The notes below the pieces were generated by a model. It worked only from the letters and a program-made list of their open reading frames with translations, was not told the DNA's origin and did not search any database. Made by a program: the position numbers and the translations under genes. This document shows, piece after piece, positions 1 to 45,000 of a stretch of DNA of 64,000 nt. This DNA is from Octopus vulgaris (lineage: Eukaryota): positions 131,750,001 through 131,814,000 of the forward strand of contig OX597819.1 in the NCBI GenBank assembly GCA_951406725.2. The letters run 5' to 3'. Position 1 is the stretch's first letter. The number at the start of each line of letters is the position of its first letter.

Positions 1-1385
1 GTATGTGCATATTTGTGTATGTGTATTTTTGAGCATATGTGTTTGTATGTATGTCTCTATATCTGCATGTTGACGGTGAGCTAGCAGAATCGTTAGCACA
101 TCGGGCAAAATGCTTAGCGGTATTTCATCTGCCGTTACGTTCTGAGTCAATGTAATCGACTTAATCCCTTTGTCTGTCCTTGTTTGTCCCCTCTGTGCTT
201 AGCCACCTGTGGGCAATAAAGAAATATATATCTGATGTTGACATTGCTTTGTAAAAGAGTTCTGGTTTTGTTTGTGCTGTAACTTAGCAGTACAACAAAC
301 AGAGACTATTAAGCACCAGATATTGATATGTTTGAGTAAAACCTTTCACATTGCACACATGACTGCAGTCCAATGAAAGCAAAAGAAAAAGCAGATCAAA
401 GTTTAGTCTCAGAATGTTGACACTATTGACAAGAAAGTGTAAAAAAAACAACAGCAAAAAATTAGTGAAAACCTACAGAGAGATGCTATGCAAAAGGTTA
501 AACAACAAAGGGTTCATTTCCACTGTGCGGCACCTTGGGCATGAGTCTTGTGAGCGGATTTGATAGAAGGAAACTGAAAGAAGCCCATCATATATGTGTA
601 GGCTTGTGCTTACATTTGTGCTCTTTGAGTTGTGAGCTATGAAAGGGTGTTGCTTTTGTCAGTTCTTTTGGCCTATAAAACAACGCTTCAATAATATATT
701 CATCTAACCCATGCTAGCATGGAAAAAACAGACATAAAATAAATGCTGTGAAACTTAGACCCACTTTCACTTACATAAATATGCAGCTGTTGCTCACTGA
801 AGACTAGGTTAGTAAGGAAAATGAGATGTTAATCAAATGTCACAAATGGGTGCTGATTAAAGACTTATGATTAAAGACTTCATTGATAAAACAGATCACT
901 GTTAACTAACACGAAACATCAGAAATTGATAAAGAAAATTACATATGACAGCACAGTAACGATAATGACACCATTACTATAATTAATAAAATTATTATTG
1001 CAAACCCACAGAAACATCAATTCTGTTGAATAAGACAAACATTCTTCACAAACATTCTTAGTGGAACAATCTTGACTACATTTTTTTTTTAAAAAGCAGT
1101 GAGTGAGTGAGTGTGTGTGTGTTCTACTCGCTTTTTGTTGTAATATTAATATGAAATGTAATTTTAAAGTCATCAAGATTTTAAGTGATTAAAAATATTT
1201 GCATGCATAATTAAACTTATGATAAAACCATTTTAAGTTTTCTAAGATTACTAGATAAGCCCAAAATCTTTGACAAGAAACAGCTGCAAAATTAATCAGT
1301 TTACAAAAAAAAAAAAAAAACTACACAAAATAGTTTTTTTTTAAGTAGGAGAACACCATGCTTGAAGCTTCAACTCAATACCTAC

Positions 1386-1415
1386 CAACAATAATTGGTG
1401 CCGAAAATTTGTCTT
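1386..1415 (-). CDS. Microexon 16, 30 nt: (E)DKFSAPIIV
   Basis: tttttttcttatcag|AAGACAAATTTTCGGCACCAATTATTGTTG|gtaggt; GCATG at +25..+29. Confidence 0.78.
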
Positions 1416-4400: not shown

Positions 4401-7400
4401 TTAATTAATAAATATTATTGATTTATTGTTTTGGCATCAAAATTTCACTATCTTTGAATTATATCTAACTCTATAAAAAATTTCAATACTTTTCATTGAA
4501 AATATATTTGAAGTATTATTATTGCTATAAAAATTTATCAAAAGTTCAGTATGAGAAAATAGCTACATAGATTATTAATTGATATAAGTATTATTTAAGA
4601 AAACCTTTAAACAATACAGATAAGTTGGACAAAGTATGTAAAACGATGTCAATAAATAAAGACATGATGCTATATCACTCTATGTAGATTGTTTAATGCT
4701 TCAGTTATATCCCAGGAAAGTTTCCTTTAAGAAACATAACACACCAGAATGAAGTATGAACTACTGTCTTATTTTTGCTAAAGGAAATGATTCCCCAAAA
4801 TGTAAAAGAAGCATTCAACATAGAGTGATGTCTTGTCTCTGTCTTTATTCATTGACATCACCTGACAGATTTTGCCTAACTTCTCATCGGTATTGCTTAA
4901 AGGTCCGCTTAAAAATATTTCAAACAAATTACAAAACTTGTTTAATCTTTTAATCATACATAAAGGAAACCATTTAGTTTTTATTACATAACTCAAGACA
5001 AAATATAAGGCGGCATTTTTTTTTGTGAATCAAGAATTAATGTCTAATTTAACAGCAACATTGCAAACTGGGTTTTAACAAAATATTTTAGATTATTGTT
5101 TAGGATTAGATATGCTTAAATATGTAGCTTTATTTATATTTAGAAAATTACTATTTGTAAATCTCACAACAAGAGATATTCAGCAATAATACTTTGGAGT
5201 AAAAATTGTTTGCCAACATAACATGGCAGTCCTGGTTTAGGACAAATGTTGCTGTAATTTAGCCCCAGGAGACATCATCACCAGCTGGCGATACAACATG
5301 ATCTGTGTCCTTATATTTTCAAACAAGGCAATCTAGCACCCCAACTCAGCTCAAAACAATATCTGTGTATCATTTCCGGGTTATTTCCCTTCATCAGCAC
5401 AGAATAATTGTTCGGCTATTTATACTTAAATTATTTATATTTAAATGAAGATCTTTTGTAAACTGCATTTATAGATTTTGGGGTTGCAAAGTTTAAAGAG
5501 GTGTTTCAGTTGTATTTATTTTTCTGTGAGCTAATCAAACAGTATGAATCACTAGAAGCAAGTATGGTTATGAAATGATGAGGACTGTCTAGTTACGTAC
5601 CATCGATCTCAGTATCGCTGATCACTTCTTCAGCTGGAACAGAAATGGTACAGACTTCAGAAAAAATACAAAAATAAAAGACTTCTTTTTAGTTACAAAT
5701 AAACTATTAATTACCATCAAAGATGATTGCTTTAAACAGAGCAAAGTACAATTGTTTCGTCACTAGGAACACTAGAAACCTAGGGGAATAGAGTTGATTC
5801 AATAATAAACAAAAGTTGTGGTTTTTGAGGGTTTTTTTCCTAATTCAGTTTGATAAAGTTATAGAGTTTTTCACAGTTGATAACAGAAAAACAAACCAGA
5901 GAAAACTAGAACCTATAAAGATACTTAAAAGAGCTTTGGGATTCCTAAGACAAGAATTTGTGAGTAAACTTGGATAAGGGAATTCAAGAAAATGAAAGAG
6001 TTACAGAAGGAAGAAACTGAAAATATGGAGAAAAAAAAATTAAACGTTTTTAGTGATGGGCAAGATTCTTCAAAAAATGAGTTTTGTTTTATAGAGACAT
6101 TTAAATGAGGATCTCACAACAAATTTCAATCAGTTTTGTTTATGGAAGTCTAATAAATATTCCAGAAACCAATATGGACTACATTTTCCTTGTTACTGAT
6201 TACACTGCCATAAAAATAGCCTTTCTTTCAAGCAAAAGTCCAATAAAAGACATTGTCCAAAGCCATGTTTCAAGAAATCATAAAAATGCTAAGCATTGAA
6301 CATACTCTTCTCTGAAAGTTTTCCAGATCAAAATTAAAACTCTTATACAACATCCACCTTAAAAATTCTGTATTGTATGAAAGCTACAGGCTACAAATCC
6401 AGTGAAGTCATCAAACCTGTTTTTTATTTTTTTCTGTCTATTGAAAGTCAGCCTGAATAATGACATTTCTTTCCAAATATTTTCATAAACCAGTTATGAA
6501 TGACAAACTTTCAGAAGTAGGTCAGTGAAAAAGAAATATCTATTTAAAGAATTCTAAGAGAATCTAAGTTTTGTCAGGTTCTTGGAGAATTTATATTCTT
6601 CAAGTAGCAATTTGTTCAAACATTTCATAAATAACTTAACAGACTTAATTAAAGGAAATGAGAGAATAGACCCATTCCTCTCTCTCACACACACACATAC
6701 AAAGAGAAACTCTCAACCACACTTAATTCATAAACCTCTCCTAAAAGTGCTTATCATTTTCCTTCAAGACAATTTATTCCCGTCATAAACTCTACTGGAA
6801 GTAAAACAATACAACCCCTAAAACAGCATCAATATAGTTGTACTCTTATAGTTGCCTTCAAATTTTACCATAAAAGAAAACACTGAGATACAAGGCTTGG
6901 AAAGAAGCTACTGTAAAACTTGGCAGCAAGAATGAATATGGTAATTGTGAAATTGGATCACAACAGCACAAGAACAAACACCACAGCAATTAGAAATAAC
7001 AAAGTTGTAGTGAATTTAGCATCTAACGGCTGTTGTGTGTTAGATTATTCCAGAAGAACTTTCAGTGTAGCACCAAAACCAACGGCTTACCACAGACATA
7101 AGAGATTTGTTTCATGTGCATACTGACATCAAAATTTGGTAAAAGAGGGAACTTGGTGGAGCTATAAGACCAATGAGGTTTTAAAAAAGGACTTTGCTAC
7201 AGAAGGTAAATATGGTAAAGATCAAAATTATGATCGAGGTTGTTTGTAATAAACGATAGAGATCAGAAGTAAGATATTGTCAGAATTACATCAACGACAG
7301 GAAATAATTAAGATTTAAGGGGGGGGGGGGAATGACCGTACATTAATTAAAATATACAAGATTAAGTGATGAAGATTATCATATAACATCCAGTTACCTA

Positions 7401-10400
7401 CCATCGGGATCAATATCACTGACCACTTCTTCGACTGGAACAAAAACAGGAGATGCGTCAATAAATGGATAAATGAACAAATTTCTGAACACAGCTGATT
7501 AGTATCAAACCACAAAAATATTTCTGGATTAGTTTTTGAACAAAGCAAACGTTTGGCAATCGTTTCCAATAATTTCATCCATTTATGCAACAGAAATGAA
7601 GAGGGATTGCCTTAAAAAATTATGAAAGTAGAGAAAGTTCTACAACCCTAATGAAAGAAGACATTTCCTTTAAGATTGTACCACAATGGTGATATTTACA
7701 ATAGAAAACGGTTTATAGGGCTTCTTTTTTTTTTTTAGTTTTTCTCCAGTCAGTCATCATACTCAACAGAAACAAATAGTAATATTGAATTTTGAATATT
7801 AAATAAGTTCTACTACAAACAGATATGACCCCAAATTAACTGTTTATGAACAGCAGCTGCTGTGAACAATTATAAAGATATTTGAAGGTTCTAAAGTTGA
7901 AATAACATGCAAATCAACCAGAAGGTACCTACCCACTCCAACTGGAGGTGGTAAATCTTCTGTTAAAGTGAAACAAAAAATAAAAATAAGTAAATAACAT
8001 TGATATTTTAAAGAATGTATAATATTATTACACAATCATCATTTGAGTACCGAATTAGACACAGGACCTTGGTTATTCACACAAAAATATTCACCAGGTT
8101 AAATCACTTAAAAGCAGCTGTACATACACATACACGCACTAATATATATATATATATATATTTCTTTATTGCCCACAAGGGGCTAAACACAGAGGGGACA
8201 AACAAGGACAGACAAAGGGATTAAGTCGTTTTACATCGACCCCAGTGCGTAACTGGTACTTTATTTATCGACCCCGAAAGGATGAAAGGCAAAGTCGACC
8301 TCGGCGGAATATATATATATATATGTATATATCAACAATGTGTGCATTAGAATGGCAATGAAAAGCTATGAATGTTTCCTATGGTTATACAAAACAAATC
8401 TAATCTAATTTTGACAGTTCTGATCTTTTATTAAAAAGTTAAATTGGAATAAATGGCAACGATAGGCTGGAATCTCATGTAAACAAGAGTTTGCCTTAGA
8501 AAAACTTCCATTTCTAAAGAGATTTTAAAAATTATCAGAGATATCAACTAACTAAAGTGGCATATTTTGAAAAAAATGGTGAAGAAAGAGAGAATCAGGA
8601 ATAACTAGTTACCTACCATCAAAATCAATATCACTGACTTCTTCCACTGGAACAGAAACACGATGGAATTCAAACAAAGATACAATGGAATAATACACAT
8701 TTATGTCAAAGACTTATTAGTCTTTGCACCACAGCAATATTTCTAGCTTAATTTTGGACAAAACTTTATAATCTTTAATCCCCTCACTAACAACTATAGA
8801 ATAAAGTTTGATTTCTTTGACAAATTAAACTTTTATTAAATTTTATTTACAAAAAACAAACAAACTAATTAACTAAATTTCATACCATATTTAAAATCTT
8901 GCTTAGGGTTTATTCTCATAATAAGAAAGCTTTCTGCTCAACAGAAATCCATAGATTTTATAAAACTTTGCAAGGTGATTATTAGTAGAATAATTATCAC
9001 CAAAGAAAAAATACAAGAAATATTTCAAACAGTTTGTGCCTTAAACATCTTCTAAAATGATTGCTCAAAAGAAACTTCAACAAAAGGACATGATACAATA
9101 AAATAGAAAGGCTACATTACACATTTACACAGTTCTATTTGTAGGTCCTAACTATCTATAAAGAAATCTTTTCTTCAGAAAAATTTAGAGTTTAGCCGAG
9201 ATTTTATTCTAACTGATGATTGAAGCATTGATATGATCAATAAGAAATCTTTGCTATTTTATGCTAATATTTTGGTTGATGTAACTAAAGGATCATAGGA
9301 CTGAACTGAGATTTGTGAATTGATAGGATTGTACATCTTCAATGCACAATAATTCTTGAAAATGTCACTAATAACATTAACAAGTGAATATCAGTTTATT
9401 TCCTGACATGAAATCTTGACTATGCTGCTCGTTATTATAATAATGCGTTAAAAGAGAGTGCTTCCAAAGATAGGACTCATTATATATATTGAACAATGCT
9501 AATGATCATAAACTCAGTAGGAAAGAAATACTATATAGTATAATACTATATAGTATAATCCAAACTATAGTTTAAATGTTGGTCCAATGATGCCAAAAGT
9601 TTCATAAATTTTATAAATTAACATTTCCCCATAAACTGTTGATATTATAACATTAAAAATAATATTGTGGTGAGCTCCAGTTGCATTATAACAGCTTGGG
9701 CCGCTCCCTTAGCTATTATATAACTGAGAAAGCCTTGAAACATTAATGCAGCAAAGAACAAAACTCTATGTTTATGTGTGCTGTGTCTGGAAGCTAATTT
9801 GGGAGGGGGGGACTTTTTTTGAAAGCTGTTTTTTATTAGTAAAACCTTCCACAGTTAATCTCTATAGAATGGTGATGCCAGCAGCAAATATTTTTTTCTG
9901 TTTGATTCTGTTTCCTGTATTGTGTTGCATTGGGTCCTCGTTGTAAATGCAGGATCAACCAATGAGAAAGTGTCATTCCTGTTGAAGTCTGACACAACAG
10001 TTGAAGTCATGAAGTTTACAACGTCCGACCTTTACACTGAAATTTCTTTATTGCACAGGTTGTCTGTTCTGTTCTGCAAATCTTTAGTTTCATGTTGACC
10101 AGAACGATTTTCATTCCAGTATTTTTGTAATTTACTCTGACAGTGAGTTTATGGGGAGGCATGTTACATGTTCTGTTTTAAGACATATTCAGCCACTCTG
10201 TAACTCAGGTGCACTTGGTTCTTCTAGTGTGTGTGTGTAGTAGTAGTAGTAGTAGTAGTATACTACATAAGCTATATATGTGTTGGCTTTTGTTTTTTTA
10301 CTGAGTGCTCTATTGATTGCATCAACATAGGTGAATGTGTTGTTTGGTCAACTAATATAGATTAATCTGTAGAATAATCTAATAATCTCTTCAAGGCATC

Positions 10401-13400
10401 CATTATTAATTAATGTTTGTTTCACTTGTAACATTTCTTTATCACCATCATCATCATCACCATCATCTGTTTTCCATGCTGGCATGGATTGGACTGGTTG
10501 TCACAGATATTTTGCACAATCCATTTTGGGCACAATTTCTATGTGTGGGTGTCTTTTTTAACACCTACCACTCCACAGTATCTTTTGAATGTATTTTACT
10601 GTAGCACAAACATGAGTGAAGTCACCAATTCAATGTTTGTTTCACTCCACAGGTCGACAGTCCTACTCCAGTGCTGGGTGTCAGCAATGGTTGCAGTCAT
10701 TTATTTATGGGTGGGGACGGATCACTCTCGGTGGGTATGTAAAGGCATTTATGATTTTTGTGTATACTGAAGTCTTTTATGTGTCATTCCTTATCCTACA
10801 CTTATTTCCCAAAAGAGGAAATAGCTATTAGGCTAGAACTGTGTGTGATTGTAAATCTAAGAATGGAATTATTTCCAAGATCAACTTAAAGACCTGTTCT
10901 TCCCTATTTCTCTCTCTATAAATATATCATTGACATATCTGCTGTAAATGATGAAGTCTTGCTTAGGGATACTACAAATGAGGGCCTAGGGACAGAATCC
11001 ATGGAGCCACCTAGGAGTACAGATCATTATGAAGCTAAGCAAATCTTTATTGTTAACAATGGAAGTAAAATACAAATCTAAAATCAATTCTCAAAGATGG
11101 CATACACAAACTATGAACACCACCAGCAGCAAACCTTTGAATTATAAGCTGACGTTTGCTATTTTGTCCCTTCTAAGCAGTATTCCCAGAATTCTTTGAA
11201 TATATATATATATTGTGTCCTTTTCTGTAGAAGAGCGTAGGCTCGAAACATAAAAGACTTTTTCAATTCCTGAGCGTTATACTAATACATCTGTTTGCTT
11301 TCTACACCACCTGTCTTCGTCTTGTTTTTTTCATGAACTCTCCCCCTATATACATATATATATATATTCAAATATTCTTTGCTGTTTATAATTGCATACA
11401 ATATTTAGAGAAAAATTTAAATTTTAAATTCCTCTTCAAATATATTGTTTTATCCTTTGGGAGTGTGCAAAGTGACCAGTGGACATTCCTTCAGAAAACT
11501 ACAATATATATTTTGAATTGAGAAATGACAAGCTGAGTCAAGTGCTGATGAATATAATAGGCCTTAAATCGAAAAGGTTTTTTTAGGTAAAACTTGTCAT
11601 TAAACTAATAAGCTGTCTTATGTTACTTACAAAACAACTTACAAACAGAAAACCTTAAATACTAATCAAAGTTTTATTTGAGATAATTCTTAAGAATAGT
11701 TATAAAGACTCCCCATTTAAAACACTAAATTCTATTGTAATGCAGAAGACTCGGGTGTTTAGAGTAAACCTATATTTGTTGTATAAATATTGAGAGAGAG
11801 AAAAATGATAAAGATCAGGAAGAGAAATGACAAAACATGCAAATCAACTATGAGGTACCTACCCTCATCAATTGGAGGTGGTAAGTCTTCTAGTCATGTA
11901 AAATAAAAGTCAAAGATATAAATAGAATCGATTTGAATCAATGCCATAATATACATAGGAGTCTATCAATTCAATAGCAAAACAGACATTCCAGATTGTA
12001 TGTCGGACACATGAAAAAAAAGAGCCTAGTTTTAACAGCAACCAGGAAATTAGAAAACGGAAAATTGTAATCTGTAGAAAAGGACTTCATTGGAACAAGG
12101 AGTTTATAATCCCCTTAATTCATGGATATACATCAGAGACTATAAAGTCTTCAACATAAGAAGTTATGTACACACCTGAATGTGTGTTTCCACAGGTTTT
12201 TCTAGTAAACATGTAGTTTAAGCATATTCACACAGTAATCTTATGTGGCAGTGTTGTATTCTCGGAAAAAATTAAAATCCCTTTTATGTAACAATATTTA
12301 AGGTTTCCAATAGCAACGGGTTGGAAATCTGCTTCATCAAGTGTTCAGATTTAAATAAAAATCTCAACTTTCAAAAAATTATCCCAATCTATTAATGCCA
12401 ACATCTTAACTGACGAGCGTTTCACTTGGCTGTTAAGTTACAACATTTAATACAACCAGCTTTATAACAAATATTTTATACAATCAACATTTAATATAAC
12501 CGATGAAAAAAAATCCAGCCATTTTACTAAATGTGTTCAAATTCATTGAAACATCCAGACAGGAAATCAAGTTATCAGAGAGACCAAATAATGTGGTAGG
12601 TTAACAATATCATCCTACATTTCACTGAAAAATACAAAACTAAATGATCAGAACTATCATCTAGCGGTTAGTTTACCTACCCTCAACATCAACATCAACA
12701 TCACTGACCACTTCTTCCACTGGAACAGAAACAGGACAGAATTCAACATGGAATAATAATAATAATAATAATAATATACATTTATGTTAAAGACACTTTG
12801 TTAATTCTGGACAAAGCAAAGTTAGGATAATTATCTTCAATCCCCCTGACTAATAAATATAGAATAATGAATAACTAATGATAGATGGATTTAACTGGTC
12901 TGTCAGTCAATAAAAATCACAACTACAACAGCTGTACTCTCTAGCTGTCCCTAAAATAAGAAAATGGTGAAATATACCAAAATTCATTTTCAAGATAAAA
13001 GAACTTAAAAAATGAAAAAAAGTACATATGTTAAAAGTAATTTAAGTTCTTTGGTATTTAATATGATTTTACTTGAGAATACATAAGTGAGAGATGGGCT
13101 GCTACAAAGAGGATAGAACATTGATTGGCTGTGGCGCAAAGGGCCATGGAGGAATATCATTACGAGAACATATTCAAAATGAAATAATTTAAGATTGGAG
13201 CAAAGATTACAATGTGATTACAGAATACCAAAAGCACAAGTTCCGCTGGGCAGGACATGTTGCAGGGTTCCCAGACAAAAGGTGGACCTGTGCAGTTGCC
13301 AAGTGGTATACATGAGATAAAAAAAAAAAAAAGCCACCTGGAAGTCTACCACAATGGTGAGAAGACAATCTAGTTAAGCAATATGGTTCAAGATAAAAAA

Positions 13401-16400
13401 GAATGGCACAATCAAGACAGAATTGGAAGTGCATTGTGACCAGCGGTGTATAACAGCATCTGGAGGTCTGGTCAATACTGTGAATTATTAAAAAGTTAAA
13501 GCGAGTTTGAATTTGAATAAAATTAAAATTGAGCAGATTTGTAGTGAGTATTAACATGGAACACACTGTAGTCACCAGATGGCCATGCCTGGGTATGATA
13601 GTCATTCTTAACACTGGTTCGCTTTAATGTGATAGAAAAGTCAATTAATTTAATCCATCTTTTTGTAGTCATAACAAATTTATCTGAATCTATCAAAGTT
13701 GTTGGGTATTTCTAAGAGTGCCAGATGATGTATGAAAAAAAGCTGAAGCATGTGCGATCACACACAAACACAAATTTTGCAAGTAAACTTGCAAGTAGCA
13801 AATATTACAAACAGAAAGAATTTCTAAAAAAGTATGCCTCAAACAGAAATCCAAAAATTAACCATTTATGAATTGCTACAAAGATTGTCAAAAGTATTAA
13901 GAATTTTCTATTTAAATTGCAAAGAATTTATATATATATAAAGTTCTTGAAAAGAGAGTAAAGTGAAAAGAGCATGCAAATCAACCAGAAGGCAGGTACC
14001 TACCCACTCCAACTGGAGGTGGTAAATCTTCTATTAATGTAAAACAAAAATTAAAAATCAATAATAATATATTAAAGAATGTATAATATATTGTGATTAC
14101 ACTATCATCATATATGTAATATATTACATTGTCAGATATATGATATTATTATTATTATTATTACATTGTCAACATTTGAGTAGTGAAATAGAGTCAAGAC
14201 TTTAGAAGTGCATAAAAGTACATTTTATCAACAGCATATCAATTAATAAAGTACAATGGTATAGTGAAAAAGTATAGAATATAATTAATTACAAAGATGA
14301 TTTCAAAAGCACAATTATTGATAAAAGAAACTAAAAGATTTAAACAAACGAAAGCTTTCATCACTTTCTTCTGGCAGTTTTAGTGTTCTTAAAGTATGAA
14401 CCCTAAAGATAAGAAGGACAGACTAAAGGTGGCTGACACCAGACCACTGATGGCATTTAAGATGACAAGCTACAGGGGGAGCACTGTGGATCAGTTGGTT
14501 GGCCTGTAGATCAGGGAATTCAGTCTTAAAGATTGGAGCAGATCAAAGTTTGGTAACAACATTCAAATGGCAATAATTGTAATTTTTTAGTCATATTATC
14601 AGGACCCAGAAGTTGTGTGTCCACATCCTCAGTGACCAGAGGGACAGAAAACAGCTTCATGGGCAACAAAGATAAAACTGGAATGATGCTATCAAGAACT
14701 AAATAGGGAAATGAAGCCTGGCAGAGTACTGAGACCACAACATGTGGTAACAAATGATGGTTGTGTTGGAGACCTTCAACACCCACTCACACGAATGGAT
14801 ACATCCCTCCCAGCCAGGTCTTTTCTCTAAAAGTCCAAGTTGAACTTCACTCATGGTGGAAAAAAAAACCCATGGGCACAGAAAATCCTTTGAATATTTT
14901 TTTTTTTTTTAAGCAGAAAGATATTCACAATAATGTCTATTCTGCACTTGAGTTTTAAAGAGATTTCAGATTAACAAGAAAACCAGGTTTATAATTTGTC
15001 ATCTATTGAAGTGAGGAATGTCTAAGTGACCTCAAGCTTTCAGACAAGAATCCAATGAATTCTTTTGTCTAAACTGAACAACATTCATTGAAGAACACTG
15101 TCAGGGATAAACTAATCCCTAATCCACCAAGATCTACTAAAAGAAAACTTGTACACAAAAATTAGCAACAAACAGTAGTCCTCTCTAACAGTATTGGGTC
15201 ATACCATAAATAATGTGGGTTTTTTGTACTTTTATTTTTCAAAATAAAGATAAATTTTTAAAAATCTAAAATATACTCTCCTTCATTTTCTACATTGCTC
15301 TTCCATGTATCTGGTAGACTTGCAAGGCTCCTTTTCCAAAATTCACTTGTCCGTCACAAAAAATACTCCTCCAGTACTATTCTGACCTTGTCTACAGAAT
15401 TCATATTTTTTCCATCCAAATGATTTTGATGACTGTCAAATAAATGATAGTCAGATGGGGCAATGTTCAGTGAATATGGTGGGTGGAGCACCTTTTCCCA
15501 TTCAAACTGCTCCAGCCTTTGGAATGTCATCCTCATTGTATGTGGCCAAGCATTATCCTGATAGAAGAACACCTTTCATCTTGAAACCAAAGATGGTTGT
15601 TTTTCTTCCAGTGCTGACTTAAACTGCTCAAAGTAGATCTTAGTTATCATTTGGTTTGGGTTTAAAAGTTTAAAGTGCACTAAACCTTTCATATTCCTCC
15701 AAACAGATAACAACACCTTACGTGGGTGAAAACTTTCTTTAGCCTGGGGTGCCAGTGTTTTTCCTTTCCCTACCCACTGTCTTTGGCACTTGACATTTTT
15801 ATAGAGAAACCATTTCTTGTCACCAGTCACTAATCGGTCCACAAGAGGTTCATTGATGAGACATGACAGCAAAGAAGAGCACACATTCACTCTCTGCATG
15901 CGATTAGACTGGGAAAGTTTGTGAGGAACTCATTGACCCAATTTGCTGATTTTTCTGATGGCACGCAGGTGTTGCTGAATAGTTTGAATGATCAAATCCA
16001 AGCTTCTCTACAGTTACAATGGGATCTTGTTCCACCAGGGTTTGCAGGGCGTCCTCATCAAACTTTACAGATCTTCCAGAATGAAGATCGTCTTCTAGGC
16101 TGTAGTTTCTAGTTCAGAATTTCTGGAACCACCATTGACACTGGCTTATGCTTATTGTTCCATCTCCATTATTCTGCATTAATATTCCTCACAGCTTTTG
16201 CTGCATTGTTGCCTTTATTGAAATCATAAAACAAAATATGCTGAATATGTTCCTTTGTCACTTCCATTATAGCTTTGAAAAAAAATAACTATTAAAATTG
16301 ATCTGCACTCTTCAAAACTTGCACTAAAACCAAGGGCAAGGTAAAATTACTATCTGCTTTTATAGCAAGCTGATTCAGGTAGTTTAACCCGTCCCCTCCA

Positions 16401-19400
16401 ACTTTTAGTTCATGCAATTGAAAAAAACTGTATTATTTATGGGATGACCCAATATAATTAATTCTCTCTAATAATATTCACAGTGAAGTAGCATTGTCCA
16501 ACAACATATGATCTGCTGAATTAAATTCAATGTCGGTGGAATTTTATATTACTTTGTCAGTTTGTGTGTGAATGTAATTATATACACATTCACTGAATTA
16601 TACAAAGAGAAAGAATTGTTTTGACTTCACAAGAGCCTGTAGTACCCCCCTCCCCACCCCACCTGCTAACAATGAATAAAATGGTAAAAGACTGGGTCTG
16701 ACCAGAACTAATACATAGCAGCATCATCTGGTTTACCTACCCTCAATGTCAGCATCATTGACCACTTCTTCAACTGGAACAGAAATAGGATAGAATTTCA
16801 ACAAAAATATCAAAGAACAAAGGTGTAAAGCCATTGAAAGACTTAACGGGTTTAATCATAAACCACTGCAGTTGTTATTGATTAATATTGGAGATTAAAA
16901 ACAACACTCAGGAACCCAACAATTGATTGATTATTAGTTGTTATCTAACGATATTGCATTCTGGTCATCTGGGGGGGGGGGGGGAATATAAATTTAGGAG
17001 ATTAAATATCTGACACGTTTTCAAATCTAACCATTCCTTTTAGTATTGGAGAGAGAACTGCAACATCTGATCCATTTGTAGAATGCCTTCTCAACAATAA
17101 ACCAAACCAATTAGTGTTTAAGATGAGAGTAAAAGACAAACGGGGGGGGGGGGCTTAATGAGAAGTGTTACGTCAGAGTGAACAATGGCTGAACATTATA
17201 ATATAAAGTGTGAAAGAAGAAAACATGAACAGCCACGTATTGACAGTTTCAGAACTGATAGAGAATTATTAATGGAAGCACAATTCAATCAGAAAACTCA
17301 GTAATGATATCAGTTGACTAAGCTAAAACTGCTGCCATACTTCTACTACATATGGCCAGCTGGATGAGAATGCTATTATCTTTAGTTTACAAATAAAAGG
17401 TTTCAGTTAGAATCCATTGTAAGGCTACAGGGAGAGAAAGACACTAAGTCCAGCAGTCGGGGAACAGAGAGTTGTGTAAAGATAAACATTGGAGACAAGG
17501 TTGATAATGTAAAATTGTTAGCAATGAAACTTAACTTTATTCATATTAAAATAACATAGGAAAATAAATTAACACGTTAGTTAGGAAATCAATTAAAATT
17601 AAATTAAATGAAGGAGGAATACACAGATGGAATTTAATTGAACAGACAAATTCTTGTTCTTTATAAAATGATTTACTTTGCAGAACCTCAAATGCGTTTA
17701 GTTGTCAATTGCTGAAGACTAATTTAAGAGCATAAAAGAAAAGCTGAACAAGTTTGTGTCCACTTAAATATGGAAGGACCTTTCTTGCAGTAACTATCTC
17801 GAAAAAAGAAATTCTTCCCCTTACACAACTATGTAACATTTTATTAATTGTTCTTTATTCGATGCTTCCTTCGTAAATATATAAGGACACAGGAAATGTG
17901 TCGAAGCCGACAGGAAGCGTCGATGCTTCCTAGGGCTAAACAGCGGTGGTGTAATCCCCTACTGTCACGTTAAGTTGACAGTATACAACCTCTTTATTCT
18001 TCTTATTGGACTAAGTTTATGAAAAACATCAAGTGCAACCACACACACACACAGTTCTCACTTTCTCCATATTTCTCATGTACCAGGGTTGGACATCACC
18101 CTTTTGCACAAACACAATTCTGAGAAACTGCAGATCCCTTTTGATGTTGGTTATCTGGGTTTCTTTGGTCATCTCTACAGACAGTGACATCTTACCTGCA
18201 ATCCAATTTGATATTATTCTTGTGCTGTGTGGGAACCAGCATTGCCAAAGAATAGACCCAACATCTCCTCTGCATCTCATAAAAGGCAACTGAAAGAGGC
18301 TGAGGGAGGATTTGCACTCTGACCTCATAAAACCCTCAATAGCTACCCCAAAACAGACCCATAGATTGGAGGGTTGTCATCCAAGTGGTGCAAAGGCGTC
18401 ATGCACCAGGTGTAGGGTATCACTAACAAATGGTAGATGGAATGATGCATTGTCACAGCACCTTCCCCCCTACTGCTACTGCCACCTCTACTACTACTTC
18501 CACCATATTTAGCATAAAAGACATCAAGGCAGTTTAAGAAATGCTTTAAAGTAGAGAGTTTTGCTGATCAGATCCACCTCATCATGTTTCTCTCTTTTGG
18601 GGTTGCAGCAGTGTAAGAAGACCTCAATGCTCACAGGCCCCATCTCAAACCTCAATACTCACAGGCCCTGTTTTAATGACTGACTGAAGGAGATTATAAT
18701 GAAAAACTGCATGTTTGCCACCTGACAGGTAAGCAAAATAATCCAATCAGAATAAATTAACAACTTCTTTGAACTGAGAGAGAAGAGGAGGACGTAATGT
18801 TGCCACAGATTCTAAGTCAACACAAATACTGTTTTTAGTTGTTAGTGCCTCTATACACACACAGCGCTTAAAATAAGATTGCCATTTAAAAACCTTTTAA
18901 AATATACAAATTAATGTAAAATGTTATACTTTTTCTTTGCAATGAAAGCAAAAGCAACCATAACAATGCAACATCATCCACTACACACACACACACACAC
19001 ACACACAGCGGGGCAAACAGTTGCTCAAGAAATATTTCAGTATCACAGCCATTTTATTCAAGAGGACCAAAAGACTGAATTAATCCTCATCCTTTAATAT
19101 ATATTTTTGTTGTGATTTTTCTTTGTTTTTTTTTTGTTTTATTTTTACTGATGAGGTTTCCATCTAATAATGGAATCGTTGTTCCACCTCAGTTGTAGTA
19201 ACAATCATCATCAGCATCATCATTGATGTGGTGTGAAATTAAGGTGAGTGGAACAAATATTATTGGACCTAAATATTTGCAGCAAACTCTTCTCTCCTTC
19301 ACGCCAACCAAAAAATGGTTTTCATTTAGAGCATGGCTGATATAACAATACATAATTTTCTTCGAAAGTATACTTCTGCTATATCTTAACAACACATTTC

Positions 19401-28400: not shown

Positions 28401-31400
28401 CTAAATGCCTTGATTGGATGAATGAATGATGACAGCTTTCAGATGCCCTTTGCCAACACAAATCATTTTCATTGAGATAAGTTGGGGCAGAGTGTGTATC
28501 ATGAATAGTTGCTACTAGAAGTAATGACTTCACAGCCAGGGTTGCTATGTGAACGTGTGTGTGTGTGTGTGTGCATTAACAACAGTTAATGATAACCTCT
28601 TTTGTTTTTTGAGGACTTCACATTGAACTTGACCTTTTGTTGATCTCATCAGAGACAAAAGTAACTTGGCTGGCTGTAAGGGGAGGCAACCGGCATGGAA
28701 TCTAATGCCACAGGGTATTTTTGTTCAACACACCAATTCTGCCATTTCATTCTTGACATACTCACACACGCACACACACAATTATATGGGATGCAGGTTT
28801 TCTTTTAGACATATATTGAAAACAACGATTTATCAAGGTTTTAAAAGAATATTTTGTGGGAACATTATCCTCAGTAACATTTGAATATTTTTATTGGTAA
28901 CATTAGCATTTTTAAATACATTATCAATGTTTCTAGATCCTCAGTGTGAAAGGATATTGGTAAGTGTTGCAGGTAACACTAATGTTATTCGTGGAGATAT
29001 TAAAGCTGTAATCTGAATTTTAATCCTTACGGCATTAGTCAGCTGTTTTGGTTTGTGTTTACCTATTTCAGTGTTGTGTTGTGATAAGGGCACTGCTTCC
29101 ATCATTAATCATTTATAAGCATCACAATTCCTTCATATGCGTGTGTGTGTGTGTGTGTGTGTGTGTGGAGATTTTGTAGTGCACAACTGTGTTGTCAACT
29201 GATAATTTCTTGTCTAGTTTTAGGATTTTTACATTTCTAATTTTATAAAAGAGAAAAACTTTGAAAAAGCAAATAAAAAACTAGTTTAACGAATTAGAGG
29301 TACATACCGGAAGTGATTTGAACTGCTTCAATTTTCTCTTCTACCGAGAGAGGTAAAATTTATGAAATTAACAAAATTATTATGAATAAATAGATTACAT
29401 AAATACAATTTTTCCTTTTCATTTTGGAATATATATAAAACAATCCATTAAGAAGCAGGAAGCCATGATTAAATATCCTGTTTATATTTTTTTCTTAACC
29501 CTTTCGTTACTGTATTTATTTTGAGCTGTTCTGTGTTTCTTTCAATTACTTTAAATATAACAAAAGAATTTAGTTATCATTCAGCTAGTGTTAGGAACAT
29601 AAATTGTGACTAAGGAAGATTTTAACTGAAAACTTATGGAAACAAGACATTTGTATTCAGAGCCAGAACTGGTTTCAACTGGGTTGGTAACGAAAGGGTT
29701 AAACCCATTTTCTGCAGAGACAGTTTTAAAGGATTTCAATGATATTCACAGATATACTTCTACAAGTAAATATTATTTTCAGTTATCTCTACTAGACATT
29801 TCTTTTCTTTCCACTCTTCAAGAGATGAATTGTCATCCTTCTAAAGTTTAGTTCTGGTCATGGTTCTAATCAGAGAATATGTGGCAGGTCACCTTCTTTG
29901 AATGCCTGACACACAACGCCCCCAAGAGACTGTTTTACAGCAAACTAGCGAAAGGCATGCGAATGCAAGGTGCTTCGAGGATACACTCAGGGCCTCACTG
30001 AAGAGCTTTTAAGATCAACCCCCGACACCTGCAAAATGCAAACATAAAACTACCCAGCAGAGGTGTGACCCCCTATGAACAGAACAGGATTGCTGAGGCC
30101 CAAAGAAAACACTAACTGCACAAGTCCAAAGCCAATTCTTTGCCTTGGGCCCAAACAGACCACTGGTCCTCTTTCAAAATATTCAACCTGTCTCAGCTGC
30201 TAAGCTGTTAAGCTTTTGGTTTGTTGATGTATGTTGAAATTGGTTTGAGAGTAGGGAGAGGAGCATGCAGATAGCATCAAAGAGTGATTGATTCTGGGAA
30301 TATTTTTATCTTTCTCTGGCAACAAATGCATATTTGCAGTTACAAAAAGATTATCTTATTACTTCATTAAATACAGTGAAATCTCTGCTTAGCTGAGGAC
30401 ATCCAATGTGACAGAAACTTCTCCATGGTTATCTCCCATTTTTACCAAAAGACTCAAAATAATATTAGTCAGTGTCTAATAATTTCTAGTTAGATTTTTA
30501 TGTTTCTTAAATTAGTTAACCCTAAGTTTATACCAGCTGATTAGTCGCAATAGTTGCTCATGGGTTGTAGATAGTAAGTCCAGCACCAATAATTGGTGAA
30601 CTTCATACCCTGCAAGTTCAGAAGAGCTTATACAACAATGAAATCTCTCACAACAGATTCTTAACAGAAGAAATGAAATCATTAGGCTTCATCTACATAC
30701 AGAATACTTCAAATGAGAACACTCCCTAACGAGGAGGTCGGTTCAGATGAGATCTTAATAAATAGCTTGAAAATATAATAGCAGAGGCCATGATATTGTA
30801 TTAACTTCTCCAATCAACACAACTTAGTGGCAAAAACTGTTTAATAACATCAAATGATAAGAAAACATTTGATATCCAATCTACTCTAATAATCACAAAG
30901 ACAGAATAAGAGTCACTTGTAATATGGAGACTTTCCACCAACGACACAATCTCACATCTTGCTTAGCAAAAGACAGGAGAGAAATTTAGAAAAATCCCAT
31001 TCAACATGGCTCGACCAAATACACATACGCAACTGTGACACCAGAGCATAATATGGTCCCTTAACCCATTGGACCTTGTCCAACTGTCTAACCTATATCA
31101 TCATGGAAGGCAGACATAAAATGATGAGGAGGTAAAATTTAACCATCAAAGACTCCACCAAAATCAATATCCTACCATCGTTGGCTATTTATACCAACTC
31201 AAGACAATAAAAACTAGATAAGATCACAACCACATTAAAGCTTAACGAACATTCCACTTCTACAATCAGTACTAATCGTTAAAACAATTATCAGTTATTT
31301 ATTTTTAATATCCTACTTTTCACTACACAAATGGTATCTAGCTACTGTGCTGAATCCTTGCACTCTCCTACTATAAATTAGATGCAGTCAATACAAAATC

Positions 31401-34400: not shown

Positions 34401-34833
34401 GTTTGCCACTTTATTCAATGGAAATATTAAGAAATTTGGTTTCTTGCTATTTGTGATAAGTATAGTTTCTTAATCTGAAGTCTTGGAGAATTTTAATGAC
34501 ATGGTAAATAAATATGGATAATAATAAAAGGGGGTCTTTAATGAATACAGATTAATTAAAACACCATGCATAGCAGCAGTATACTACTACCTACCCTCAG
34601 TTACTGGTGGTGGTGGTGGTGGTAGTTTGCTTTCTGGTGATGGTGGTGGTGGTGGTGGTTACATGATCAAAGCAACCAAGACGTGGAGAGGAGATTATTA
34701 AAATGATGTTTAATAAAAAGAACAAAGAAAACAAAAAAACAAAGATATTCACTAAGAAAATAATCATCTGGTCAAATCAATAGTTTTCCATTAAGACAAC
34801 AAGATACATTCTTTTATATAATAATATCGTAAC

Positions 34834-34864
<31 letters not shown>

Positions 34865-34985
34865 TACTACAAAATATTTCAGGAAAAAAATAATATTTAT
34901 TCACTTTGTGAAGCAAAGAAAAAATATAAGAGATGTGTTTTAAATAAAACAGACACATAAATGTGTGTGTGTGAAAGAGAGAGAG

Positions 34986-35025
<40 letters not shown>

Positions 35026-35405
35026 AGTGGGTGTGTATGTGTGTGTGTGTGTGTGTGAAAGAGAGAGGGGGTGTATGTGTGTGTGTGAAAGAGAGAGAGG
35101 TGTGTATGTGTGAGAGAGAGAGGGTATGTGTATGTGTGTGTGTGAAAGAGAGAGAGAGTAGGGGTGTATAATTCTGTCATTTTCTAGCACATGAAAACTT
35201 TCAACTCTTTCTCTCTCTCTCTTTTATTTTTGTACACACACACACACACACACACAATAAAGTTAGAAACAACTGCAATGCCATTTCCATGCTGATATAG
35301 GAAATGTCTGAGGAAAATTATTTTGGAAGAAAAAAAGTTTTTAAAAATGTAGTAATAAGAATATAACCATTTGTGCGTGTGTGTGTGTGTATAGAGAGAG
35401 AGAGA

Positions 35406-35436
<31 letters not shown>

Positions 35437-38400
35437 GAAGAGAGCAGAGATACAAAGATTGTGTGTGTGTGTTTGTAATTGAAATTCCATAAATATGTTT
35501 TAACTCCCTAACCAATTCCAGACAAGTTAGAAAGAAAACAGATTTGAAACATTTCGTTTGCTACATCAACTGCAAGATTCATATGCAGAAATGTTGACAG
35601 TTCTACAGTTCTACAGTTGGATGCCTGTCGACGCTAAAATGGTCTTTAATCAAATCTGAAACTTTTAAACAGCAAAAATAAGAAAAAAAATTAATTAAAA
35701 TTGATGAAATAATTCTTTAGATAAATAATCTAAATAAAGTAGGAAATAAAAGACATGCTAAACAGTTGTGTTTACCTACCGTAAACAATAGTTTGTGGAA
35801 TTTCATGGTCTAATTCAATTTAAAGAAAGAAAAAAAGGATTAGTGAGGTTTCAATATATTTACTCAAGATTCATTTGTACCATTTCTTTCTAATTCTATT
35901 TAAACAACCACAAATTTCCTAAATACAAAACATCTTTAAGAACAAACAATAAAAATTATAAAAGATTTTACCATATTCTCAGATATTTTGTAACTTATTC
36001 GCAAAAAAAAAAAAAAAAAAACGAAACTAAACTGAAAATAGAATTTTTCTTTCTTATGAAAAAGCTGAGGAAGAAAATTTTGATTAGGGTTAAAAAAAAA
36101 AAATGACTAAAATATTTGTTTCTAACAAAAATAAATAAATAAATAAACAAAACAAATTATATAAGACACTCAAAAGAAAAGGGACAATATTTATGCCATT
36201 TTGGAAGCCCTTTAAGGCTGAAGTGGAAAGAACAGAACAATTTAAATAAAAATACAAAAGAAAAAAAACAGCTGAAATAAAGTCTTTGGTAATTCCGTAA
36301 CTTCCCCAATGGAATTGTCACATAATTCTTCACATAACTCAATTTCTTATGTAATTCCAACTTAATTATCAATCACCAACAATCAAAAGATTCAATTTCA
36401 CAAAATATTTCTAAAACATTTCCATTCTATATTTCACTAAACAATTCTCTGAATCAGTTTGAGAAGAACTAAACCAATGCTACCCAACAGCAACAACAGA
36501 CCAATAAGTCTTTTTTGTATTTTTTATTCCATACATAATTGTCAACACTTCCTCTCAACAAACCTTTTCAGAAATTCGTTAACACCTGGTAAGAACACTA
36601 TTTCACGCAAATGCCTATCTTTAATAACACTTACATTTTCATATTTGCAATTATAATTAATAAAGCCAAACCCATTTGTTAAGACATAAAACTAAACCTG
36701 CCCTTAACTTTCATTCAAGCTCTGGTTGGTTTACACCAACACTTTTTGCAGTTCCTTAGGATCCATTTATTCCAACTGACCACACAACACTTGCACAAAC
36801 TCTTTCTCATTGGCACTGAATGCCAAAGAAACCCCAAATCCTAAACTTAATACAAATACAAAAACAAAAAATTACAAGTTTTCACATTAAATTTATCTTT
36901 TGAAATATAAATGCACTAAATTATCAAGAAAGAAACTAAAATTACAAATATTGAAAAACATTGTCAACATTTGATTGACAGGTCTATCGACATTTGCAGC
37001 AAATATTAACAAAACAAAACAAAAAAGTGATGCCACTGATTTTTTAATGTTTTTATTAAACTTCATTATTTCGAAAAGACTTGCCAAATGATAGAAATGA
37101 AGCAGTTGTTTAATTCTGTTATTGAAATTGTGGAGAGAGGAAGAGCATTAAATAATAGATTTGCACGAAATGTGGTTGCTTCTAATTAATGTGAATTAAG
37201 GGAGATTTAATTATTAAATAATAACTGATTGTGTCTAATTGAAAGTAAATCTGAGAGAGAGTATAATATCTAAATTATTGTAAGGAGACAAAAGGGTCGG
37301 TAGTGCCATGTGTGTAATTAGAATACAGTGGACAAAATGGGGCTATAAAATCTGTTTGGAGGCAGAAAAAACTAGATCCCGCTTCCTCCCTTTGTCTGGA
37401 AGATGGGCAGACATCTGCCAGCATCTGTCCAATGTACTCAGTTACACACACACACACAACACTGGCCTAAAATTAGTACTGCTACAAGAAACTATGACAC
37501 AGACACTCACTCACTCTCTCTCTCTCCAGAATAAATATTAGCATAACAATAATTAATTGAAAGAACTTTCAGTGTGAGAACATAAAATATTGATAAGCAG
37601 CTAAAAGTGATCAGAACAATGGTTTTAAAAAGTAACTCAATAAAAACAATGGCTGCTATTAAAAAAAAACAAAGGAAAACAAAAAAAATCTATTTCAAGG
37701 TAAAAATATTAGCAATATTTTACATTTGCAAATAACAAGAAAAAAAAAAGATATTATTTAAACTACTTTTGTGCATTACTACAGGAACACTTCTCCCCCA
37801 CCCACCCTCTTTTGCCAATCTAATTAAATTTCATAACAATAATTATAATAAAATTTCAACAGGAGAACTACGAAAAATTAACATTAATATATTTTTTTAA
37901 TGTTACGATCTCCAAGACAAAGGAATGTTTTTGTTTACCAAAATTTGGTTGAAAATAATATTAGAATTTACAAGAAGCAAAAACCCTTAAAACAAAATGC
38001 ATTCCCCCCATGACCACCACCACTTTATATCTAAACCCTTTCATCAGGCTTTAATCCCATCATAGACTTGAAAAATATACCTTAAAACTATTTTCTACAT
38101 ATATATGGGTACACATAGGCACGCATGTGTGTTTGGGACGTGTGTACATACTTTACATAAAATAACAAAGCAGATATTGTTTGTGATTGCATATTCTTTT
38201 ATCTGTTTCGGCTGAAAGGTTGTGGCCATGCTGTTGCAAACATCTATGAGCTGGAAGCTGGTCCCGTGTTTTCACCAGTTGTTTAAGATGCCTGAGGAAT
38301 CGAGACACCTTTTTGGGACTCGCACTCTTTGACTCAGAGCAACATCAAAGATTGACAACTGGAGGAAGAAAGGGATGGCTCTCGTTTACAGCTAAGCAGA

Positions 38401-41400: not shown

Positions 41401-41980
41401 TTATAATAAAACCCAGTATTAGAAATTTTGATAATTCTAATGTCTCTTTTGGCCTCATTCTGAACTTTGAAAAATGTTGAAAAATGTTGGTTTTTAGCTC
41501 GGAAGTGAGCAGATTAGATTATCAGTGACAAGGTGATTAGTAAATAAATATTTGAACAAGAATCCAATTTTCACAGAAATATCATATTGTACAAATATTA
41601 TTACAACAGAATGCTATAATTTATCTTAAAACTTATAGGTCAGACATAATTAACTACATTATAATGCATGGCTATCTTGTAAATTGGAAGATTTCCTTAA
41701 CATGAATAAATGAAACAGGAAACTGAGCTCAATAAGGAAAACAACAACAAATATAAAATCTCTTTACTCTTTTACTTGTTTCAGTCATTTGACTGTGGCC
41801 ATGCTGGAGCACCGCCTTTAATCGAGCAACTCGACCCCGGGACTTATTCTTTTGTAAGCCCAGTACTTATTCTATCGGTCTCTTTTGCCGAACCGCTAAG
41901 TGACGGGGACATAAACACACCAGCATCAGTTGTCAAGCAATGCTAGGGGGACAAACACAGATGCACAAACACACACACAC

Positions 41981-42026
<46 letters not shown>

Positions 42027-45000
42027 GACAGGCTTCTTTCAGTTTCCGTCTACCAAGGCTTTGGTCGGCCCGGGGCTATAGCAGAAGACACTTGCCCAAG
42101 ATGCCATGCAGTGGGACTGAACCCGGAACCATGTGGTTGGTTAGCAAGCTACTTACCACACGGCCACTCCTGCGCCTAATATTCATTTCTCTCATAAATA
42201 AATTTATACTTAACCCTTTCGTTACTGTATTTATTTTGAGATGCTCTGTGTTTCTTTCAATTACTTTAAATATAACAAAAGAATTTAGTAAAATAACTTA
42301 GTTATCATTAAGCTAGTGTTAGGAACGTAAATTGTGACTAAGGTTTGGTGGAAGATTTTAATTCGAAACCTATGAAAACAAGACATTTTACCACAGAGCC
42401 AGAGCCGGTTTTGGCCGGGTTAGTAACAAAAGGGTTAAAGACACATTTCTATAACAAAATATCGAGAAATTTTTTTATGTGAAATACAGAAGAATATACA
42501 AAACTCATACTTGCTGAACGGGTTTAGGCAAAATATCAATAGAAACGAACAGACGTATTTCACCACCATAGAAATAGCTTAGAGATAAGTTTAATTCTGA
42601 ATAAAAAGTAAGTGAAATGATAGAGCCATAAAAAGAGCCGAGAATAACTGAACTGACAAAAAATGAAAAAGTATTTAAAACAGCAAAAAGATTAATAGTT
42701 ACCAAGAGAATTACAATAAAGACTCACAAGAATATCAATGACTAAGCCAGCCATGTTAGTTTGTGATGATTGAGGTTAGAGTAAAAGAGTTGATGGAACC
42801 AAGACCTAAAATGGTTTGATGTTAGTTCCAATGAAGAATGAAGTGTTGAGAGTCAAATCTGTTTAAAAAAAAAAAAACAACTACATGAAATGAATCGTAT
42901 TTTCTTTTTTTTTTAATCTGAAAAAATGATGTGATTGAGAAGAGGCAATAAATCAAAACTGAAAACCAAAACGTCATGCAGGTTGTCAGAGACAGAGAAT
43001 ACCTACCACGCATCACAGTGGTTTCCACTTTGACTTCTAGAGTAAGAAAAGTAATATTATAGGTAAGTATGGAAACACTGAAAATGAAATTTTGGATTTT
43101 AAAACAAACAAACAAACAAAAAAGAAAGAAAAAATACTTTAAAAATCATAATTTCAATATTGTTCATTTTCTGAAAATGTTCAGGTTTCTTTGTACAAAC
43201 ATTTGACTTGATCCAGTATTTTACTTGTAATTTATTTTATCAATTCATCAAAAGATGAAAATAAAATCGACAGCAACCAAAATTAAGGCATTAAAATAGC
43301 TGCAATTATTAACAAAAAACATTTATAAGGTTTCATCATTGCAAGAATATATACTGACTTATTATAACAATTATTAACATGAACATTTATAAAGTTTTGT
43401 AAATTCAGCAAATATATTGAATTATTATATAAACAGCAATTATTTACACAAAACATTTAAAGTTCCATCAATTGAAAAAAATATATTGAATTTATTATAT
43501 GACAACATTTAATTTAATTCTGCACCTAAAGAGAAAAAACACACAAACAAGAAAAAAAAAATATTCAAGATTACCATAAGAGAATGAAATGTTTTGGCAT
43601 TGTATATATAAAAGTTGGTATTATCTTTAAACGGTAGAAATAATAACCGGAACCAAGAGGATTAATAATTCCAATGGCTTTATAACTCTTGCTTCGATCA
43701 AATGATCAATTTCTGATCAATGATTTCTGATCGAGCAGATGTCAATCTTTCTGCTACAAGCAAATCAAGTTTGGAACCACAGAGAGCAGTAACTGTTTGA
43801 CTTGTTAAAAATAACAGTCAAGTCTCCTTTAAATTACACATGCACAACAAATAGCTTAATGTAGTCCTAAATTTAGCAGGTGTAATAATAAGACTGAATG
43901 GTCATAAGTGGAAGGCTTTTAATCCAATGTCAGTTCAAGCGGAACCGAAATGGAACTAAACGAGAAGCCAAACGACATTTCCTCTCATTATATTGAACTT
44001 AGCAGAGATTCTTGTTAATTTTGAATCCAGGCTCAGATATTACAGGGAATAAAAATAGAATATCTCTATGGTAACTAACAGCTCTAAGAAGTTTAAACGA
44101 TAAAGGAAACAATCCAAATCATTGAATTTAGTTAATCCTTTTCATACCAACCCACCTGAGACCACCACCCCTGATTCTATGATACAAACTTCTAGTTTTC
44201 AAGTGATCTAAAAACCTTCCTCAAAAATTGTTAATTTATGTCCCCCAACAACAACTTAATAACTACAAAGGTATTTTACTAAATTTTCTCCTTTCTATGC
44301 ACACAGCCCCCCCTCCCCTTTCATTTGTTGTCTCAAGATTTTTACAATATCTCATTATTATTATTAGACTATAATGAGAGTATTTCTATAAATAGGAGTA
44401 GAAACTTGAACTCAAGACCTGTCAATGTTTGTATCTTCACAATATTCAAAGCAATGAGCTGCCAAACACTTCCTTATTCACAATGAGGTGACCATGCACT
44501 CAAGTTTTGGACCTCAAATAGAGCTCACCTTCCACTGAGCAAATTTGGGATCTAAAGAGATTCTATGATCGTCCAATCTTTTTGTTGGGCATTGCCTATC
44601 TGGGACTACATTAGCAAATGTTTCCTTTCCTTTTCAAGACAAACGTTTGCCATTTGAAGAAGATTTAGCTGCTCTTTCTAGGAAGTACTGGTTAACCTAG
44701 TTTAGCGGAGTGTGATGTCACGTCAGCTGACGCATTGAACAGGTGCTATGGCTCCAGTGATGAAGTACAACGTCTCTGGCACGCATGATTGCACACTGCA
44801 CCTATTTTAGTATTTTGAACTTGCTTGTGGATAGCAGTGTCTAGGCATGGAGATCAGATTATTTTCATTGAAAGGCCCGGTCAGTTCTTAAATATCTAAA
44901 GGCTTACACACTGACTGCTACTAATAATAAACTTACTATCTACAGTGCTCAGGTGCACCACTGCAGCTCTCTGTCAGGTATTTCAGCTGTCATTCATAGA

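Follow-up and report, generated by a model that had tools for sequence, protein, structure and literature searches.

Rbfox-type motifs lie just downstream of tandem microexons in an octopus gene

Ten of the 18 tandem phase-1 microexons in an uncharacterised Octopus vulgaris gene are followed by (T)GCATG, the motif of the splicing factor Rbfox, with GCATG starting at intron positions +18 to +33. We analysed this array in a stretch of 64,000 nucleotides (nt) from contig OX597819.1 (the window; G000:C6:131750001-131814000), in which the host gene is transcribed from the minus strand. Microexons were located by mapping database isoforms onto the genome. Seventeen frame-preserving phase-1 microexons of 27-39 nt lie inside the window; one more, 15 nt long, lies 6.3 kb beyond its left end, all 18 being frame-preserving and in tandem within one 57-kb interval (Table 1). 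Judging from the sequence, we consider it reasonably probable that the (T)GCATG elements are Rbfox enhancers that would help to turn on most of the array at once, largely as a block.

A first-pass annotation of the window had placed the motif behind 8 of 16 microexons. All eight sites were recovered at their places on the minus strand, and the eight exons named there as lacking the motif (five of the EEV family and those at 20671, 27034 and 29308; exons are named by their lower window coordinate) have no GCATG within 300 nt downstream. The count itself changes to 9 of 17, as the window holds 17 microexons and the carrier at 26705 had been missed. A scan for extra microexons gave four weak candidates (44156, 25000, 10569 and 2324), none present in models and none with the motif, which were excluded from the count.

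The motif is strongly enriched at this position. The background for GCATG at +15 to +35, a range picked after the data were seen, stands at 2.3% over all positions and at 4.7% over 811 GGTR pseudo-donors, and the binomial probability over this range is 1.6e-9 for 10/18 carriers and 4e-6 when collapsed to 6/11 exon families. Over a wider window of +8 to +100, the corresponding values are 2.7e-5 (10/18) and 1.4e-3 (family-collapsed). A prior-free ranking with paralogues collapsed placed GCATG first of 1024 5-mers (7/11 families, p=3e-8) and TGCATG first of 4096 6-mers; family statistics were computed at 6/11 and at 7/11-7/12. The flanks of 43007 and 1386 are alike (z=6.8), the likeness sitting in A/T runs. 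The first-pass annotation had suggested a comparison with random donors, and the run on the 811 pseudo-donors confirms the excess; its argument that copying alone does not explain the position likewise holds, since 6-7 of 11 families still carry the motif after collapsing.

Four negative controls from the same genome point in the same direction. GCATG at +15 to +35 is absent from all 9 constitutive donors of the host gene, and the gene's N-terminal microexon (about G000:C6:131840648-131840662) has no motif nearby, its first match standing at +173. Among myosin donors (30 loci, 3 of them without a donor call, and 4 of the remaining 27 doubtful with negative scores), 0/27 have the motif at +15 to +35 and 2/27 have a match in +8 to +60. 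A gene on C1 with an immunoglobulin (Ig) array and RhoGEF, which is obscurin-like (G000:C1:158965898-159199059), contains at least 228 candidate 27-30-nt phase-1 microexons; GCATG occurs at +15 to +35 in 0/228 of these and within +8 to +100 in 1/228.

Genome-wide, TGCATG is found at +20 to +34 after GGTAGGTA in 1718 of 168,479 cases (1.0%), versus 6/13 in the array. The reverse-complement control gave 853 matches, a twofold strand excess that we rejected as a map of Rbfox sites and do not count as evidence for Rbfox, because the listed matches are mostly microsatellites. A narrower pattern (30-nt exon, donor and TGCATG) returned 40 scattered matches versus 24 in its control and no cluster, a weak negative because a TYAG acceptor was required and the host gene's own exons were missed.

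Comparison among exon copies suggests that the motif has been kept by selection among the diverged paralogues of the LPPP family. The 8-nt block TTTGCATG is invariant in 4/4 LPPP copies, while the other intron columns are invariant at 37/224, and it is the longest conserved intronic run beyond the donor. Furthermore, an Rbfox gene is present on C24, with one RRM exon 30/32 identical to RBFOX1. At its own splice sites, this 93-nt exon (L023:8188-8280, minus strand) is flanked by GCATG at -8 and +3, and TGCATG lies inside both acceptor and donor. By analogy, the layout suggests conserved autoregulation: UGCAUG elements around the RRM exon and Fox-dependent skipping are described in mammals, along with an equivalent Drosophila exon (PMC2777236, PMC3126832). 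Rbfox-like transcripts and NeuN-like staining are reported in an O. vulgaris ganglion (PMC5736919). Taken together, the enrichment, the four controls, the conservation among copies and the conserved Rbfox gene bear out the earlier view that the sites look like Rbfox downstream enhancers.

The array donors are themselves unusual. All 18 exons and the N-terminal microexon have the donor type G/GTRNGTA (the slash marks the exon end), with GTA at +5 to +7 in 18/18, A at -2 in 0/18 and A at +4 in 1/18. Elsewhere, +5GTA is found in 0/9 constitutive donors of the host gene, 5/27 myosin donors and 2/228 obscurin-like donors, while +4A is found in 22/27 and 223/228 of the latter two sets. This donor signature is more uniform than the Rbfox motif. 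Thirteen donors read GTAGGTA, whose second GT, 4 nt downstream, would shift the frame. Mean donor score is 3.3 in carriers, 3.75 in non-carriers and 5.4 in the obscurin-like set (scored with a consensus matrix; copies not independent). The pyrimidine tract averages 7.2 of 11 in carriers versus 8.9 in motif-less exons (p=0.038, uncorrected).

Under the favoured reading, Rbfox bound just downstream would raise the use of these weak donors, and the motif-less exons, helped by better acceptors and by their neighbours in the array, would be included too, though more variably. Low Rbfox activity would lead to skipping of the whole array or of all but one or two outer exons; at high activity, an acidic stretch of 188 residues would enter the disordered loop that separates the N-terminal domain from the part with the winged helix-turn-helix (wHTH)/nucleosidase fold. 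Because of known Rbfox biology, the tissue of inclusion is probably muscle or neurons. Rbfox binding, enhancement, cooperativity and tissue are what we infer here.

Several observations weigh against this account. The isoforms come from gene models in databases and not from long reads, and they cover 18 of at least 51 long models of O. sinensis. Among those 18, skipping in at least one model affects 3/10 carriers and 5/8 motif-less exons. The outer carriers occur without the eight inner ones, and therefore the motif alone would be insufficient and a second factor or a threshold would be needed. The acceptor difference over the wider range -20 to -4 has p=0.076, and the copies compared are not independent. 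As for the controls, the obscurin-like set is highly paralogous and score-filtered, and the consensus matrix used to call control donors is biased towards canonical sites. The O. vulgaris models may be projected from those of other species.

The first-pass annotation went further and proposed two regulatory classes, with Rbfox-driven carriers, motif-less acidic exons under a different factor, and tissue-specific choice between Pro-rich and acidic linkers. The split in sequence is clean, with GCATG behind none of the eight motif-less exons; skipping in long models falls more on these exons, and the EEV family has its own common strong acceptor. Yet both exon kinds are present in all 18 O. sinensis long models and neither class stands alone in any, two EEV exons are never skipped there, and the nine short octopod models contain no array exon, the last only, or the first and last, taking only the outermost carriers. 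The models thus split outer from inner exons, and this division runs through the carriers. Nor does composition follow the motif: 4/10 carriers have 0-1 proline. All 18 exons have the same donor type, and the motif-less set is not marked by any of four further motifs (YGCY, ACTAAY, GTGT and TCTT). From 19575 to 7402, carriers alternate with EEV exons because a two-exon unit, an LPPP carrier with a motif-less EEV exon, was duplicated, and the five EEV absences therefore amount to roughly one ancestral event. In turn, 27034 without the motif and 26705 with it form a tandem duplicate pair. We therefore regard independent control of the classes as unlikely, and two regulatory classes as first drawn are probably not present; the pattern of motif presence and absence would mostly record duplication of the LPPP and EEV unit, not two independent programmes.

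A slightly less likely alternative holds that the sites are functional and merely offset weak splice sites, through a broadly expressed Rbfox or another GCAUG binder, with a different regulator acting on the common donor as the tissue switch. In the 27034/26705 pair, the motif sits with the copy that has the weaker acceptor and donor; the donor type is common to 18/18 exons and the motif to 10/18; and the outer carriers behave unlike the inner ones. On the other hand, the two carriers 43007 and 1386 own the strongest pyrimidine tracts of the array (10 of 11), and Rbfox targets are described as tissue-regulated (PMC2777236, PMC3126832). It is very improbable that the motif is functionless, copied with duplicated exons or decayed from a GGTA/TATG/CATG microsatellite: four carriers do belong to one family and the genome-wide matches listed are mostly microsatellites, but 6-7/11 families keep the motif after collapsing, it is invariant where its flanks have diverged, most donor-to-motif spacers are not repeats, and the genome-wide rate is low even with microsatellites included.

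The host of the array is an uncharacterised octopus gene with a predicted wHTH/nucleosidase fold. A terminal exon, 30 kb left of the window, is a 100% match to a protein labelled Octopus vulgaris and also matches O. sinensis LOC115212809 and O. bimaculoides LOC106873546. The protein, of 579-766 amino acids (aa), combines HTH_69 (PF22979, above the Pfam cut-off) with an MTAN-like fold, PNP_UDP_1 matching below threshold. AlphaFold models the 579-aa form with a mean predicted local distance difference test score of 83.3, and the structures that match this model best are MTA/SAH nucleosidases (E 4.6e-12, 18% identity); a PDB sequence search with the host protein gave no match below E=0.64. The microexons insert at a low-confidence loop of this model, residues 159-169. 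Full inclusion adds an acidic, Pro/Val-rich linker with a net charge of -49. A protein search with the linker returned only database models among proteins of near length (5 matches) and none among shorter proteins. The gene family is present across molluscs, annelids and arthropods, and searches made on it found no described function.

The insertion site is old. In clam, chiton, sea-hare and Babylonia, the models also place a few small optional inserts at this position, and it is thus a molluscan splice hot-spot of long standing that was expanded in cephalopods. Decapodiform-like transcript contigs share their core with a Sepia-containing cluster and repeat the pattern of the octopod models. 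They include forms with 0-3 small inserts; single contigs of 3.2-3.7 kb encode 985-1055-aa forms with the whole linker, up to 476 aa, made of different peptides. A broader proposal, which we put forward only tentatively, is a cephalopod Rbfox-gated cassette: the spliceosome would overlook 18 donors without -2A or +4A for as long as the Rbfox sites spread over about 49 kb did not act cooperatively on them, yielding a tissue-specific acidic-spacer form (roughly 190 residues; about 480, of different peptides, in decapodiforms) at an ancient molluscan hot-spot, the array having grown by duplication of exons together with their enhancers.

Table 1. Exons and motifs of the host gene (window positions unless stated)
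Feature	Position	Strand	Remarks
Constitutive coding exon	54086..54197	-	GCATG absent within 300 nt downstream
Constitutive exon directly upstream of array	45454..45573	-	Ends at linker insertion point; without motif
Microexon 1, 30 nt	43007..43036	-	Carrier; not Pro-rich; outer exon, also in short isoform models
TGCATG, +27	42975..42980	-	Behind microexon 1
Microexon 2, 30 nt	35780..35809	-	Carrier; weak acceptor
GCATG, +22	35754..35758	-	Behind microexon 2
Microexon 3, 39 nt	34595..34633	-	Carrier; poly-Pro
TGCATG, +25	34565..34570	-	Behind microexon 3; then GTGT (composite 34560-34570)
Microexon 4, 33 nt	29308..29340	-	Without motif
Microexon 5, 30 nt	27034..27063	-	Without motif; tandem duplicate of microexon 6, stronger acceptor
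Microexon 6, 30 nt	26705..26734	-	Carrier; weakest acceptor and donor; donor G/GTGCGTA; overlooked in first pass
TGCATG, +32	26668..26673	-	Behind microexon 6
Microexon 7, 30 nt	20671..20700	-	Without downstream motif
Microexon 8, 30 nt	19575..19604	-	Carrier; LPPP family
TGCATG, +22	19548..19553	-	Behind microexon 8
Microexon 9, 33 nt	16741..16773	-	Without motif; EEV family; most often skipped in long models (10/18)
Microexon 10, 27 nt	14004..14030	-	Carrier; LPPP family
TGCATG, +26	13973..13978	-	Behind microexon 10
Microexon 11, 39 nt	12681..12719	-	Without motif; EEV family
Microexon 12, 27 nt	11863..11889	-	Carrier; LPPP family
TGCATG, +22	11836..11841	-	Behind microexon 12
Microexon 13, 30 nt	8617..8646	-	Without motif; EEV family
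Microexon 14, 27 nt	7933..7959	-	Carrier; LPPP family
TGCATG, +22	7906..7911	-	Behind microexon 14
Microexon 15, 33 nt	7402..7434	-	Without motif; EEV family; skipped in 0/18 long models
Microexon 16, 33 nt	5601..5633	-	Without motif; EEV family; skipped in 0/18 long models
Microexon 17, 30 nt	1386..1415	-	Carrier
GCATG, +25	1357..1361	-	Behind microexon 17; then GTGT (composite 1352-1361)
Microexon 18, 15 nt	about G000:C6:131743650-131743664	-	Outside window; TGCATG at +17

Some acceptors in the array have features of their own. That of microexon 3 (window 34634-34660) lacks the usual pyrimidine tract and consists of a (CCA)n run that extends the repeat of the exon itself. NAGNAG acceptors stand at 27063, 26734 and 11889, and O. 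sinensis models use both versions, with one residue removed; for exon 1386, one model set also has an acceptor placed 21 nt upstream of the usual one. Microexon 7 has four GCATG copies upstream (-89 to -77), in a (CATG)n microsatellite at window 20773-20790, where repression would be expected; 2/18 long models skip this exon. The intron upstream of the array contains a 27-nt tandem repeat of 24 copies (97% match, window 50066-50713) with several open frames, and SINE-like (short interspersed nuclear element-like) repeats are many elsewhere in the window. Inside the array, window 15354-15929 (minus strand) has broken fragments that we take to resemble a mariner-like transposase; a 155-aa open reading frame at about G000:C6:131653002-131653466 (minus strand) presumably resembles a Costars/ABRA-type domain.

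The exons are already in public gene models, and their regulatory layout appears to be undescribed. Literature searches found no paper joining octopus, microexon and Rbfox, and none on the host gene or family identifiers; a 20-species dataset with O. bimaculoides tissues (bioRxiv 10.64898/2026.09.05.749416) may cover these exons. The array thus offers evidence, at the level of sequence, for the Rbfox position rule operating in a cephalopod, for which the same searches found no earlier paper. It is also a compact natural experiment, with 18 microexons of one donor type, paralogue pairs with and without the motif, and a motif-free array in the same genome, and it opens to direct test the long-standing question of whether a splicing activator works on single exons or cooperatively along a whole array.

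Among known systems, the closest are the RBFOX-enhanced micro-exons of human and mouse, where TGCATG is described as over-represented just downstream of alternative micro-exons and RBFOX-dependent ones as having weaker splice sites (Li et al. 2015, PMC4317164); a downstream Fox-1 position is stated to predict enhancement (Kuroyanagi 2009, PMC2777236). The octopus array resembles them in its motif, in the conservation among copies and in the presence of an Rbfox gene. It differs in belonging to a mollusc, in its 18 tandem microexons, in sites duplicated together with exons, in eight exons without a site and in its atypical donor. In Caenorhabditis elegans egl-15, ASD-1/FOX-1 and SUP-12 act through UGCAUG and a neighbouring GUGUG in muscle (PMC2777236). 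GCATG followed by GTGT in two octopus carriers (34595 and 1386) is a partial match to this composite, noticed post hoc in 2/10, and unlike the octopus sites, which are downstream, the egl-15 element is a silencer placed upstream that acts on mutually exclusive exons. The neural microexons of the eMIC/SRRM4 system (Torres-Mendez 2022, PMC8797185) are likewise very short, frame-preserving and flanked by weak splice sites; in contrast, TGC lies within 20 nt of the acceptor in 1/18 octopus exons, and against the 3-27 nt range given for that system 4/18 octopus exons fit and 14/18 are longer than 27 nt.

The obscurin-like array of the same genome contrasts with this one in its canonical +4A donors and in the absence of downstream GCATG (0/228 at +15 to +35). 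In the PEVK-type modular spacer of titin, a giant Ig/FN3 sarcomere protein, many small symmetric exons encode low-complexity sequence rich in E, V, P and D. The octopus linker is like both the titin PEVK spacer and the octopus obscurin-like array in that small symmetric exons encode a low-complexity E/V/P/D-rich spacer. Unlike titin- and obscurin-type spacers, however, it would be inserted into a small protein with a predicted wHTH/MTAN fold, and not into a giant Ig protein.

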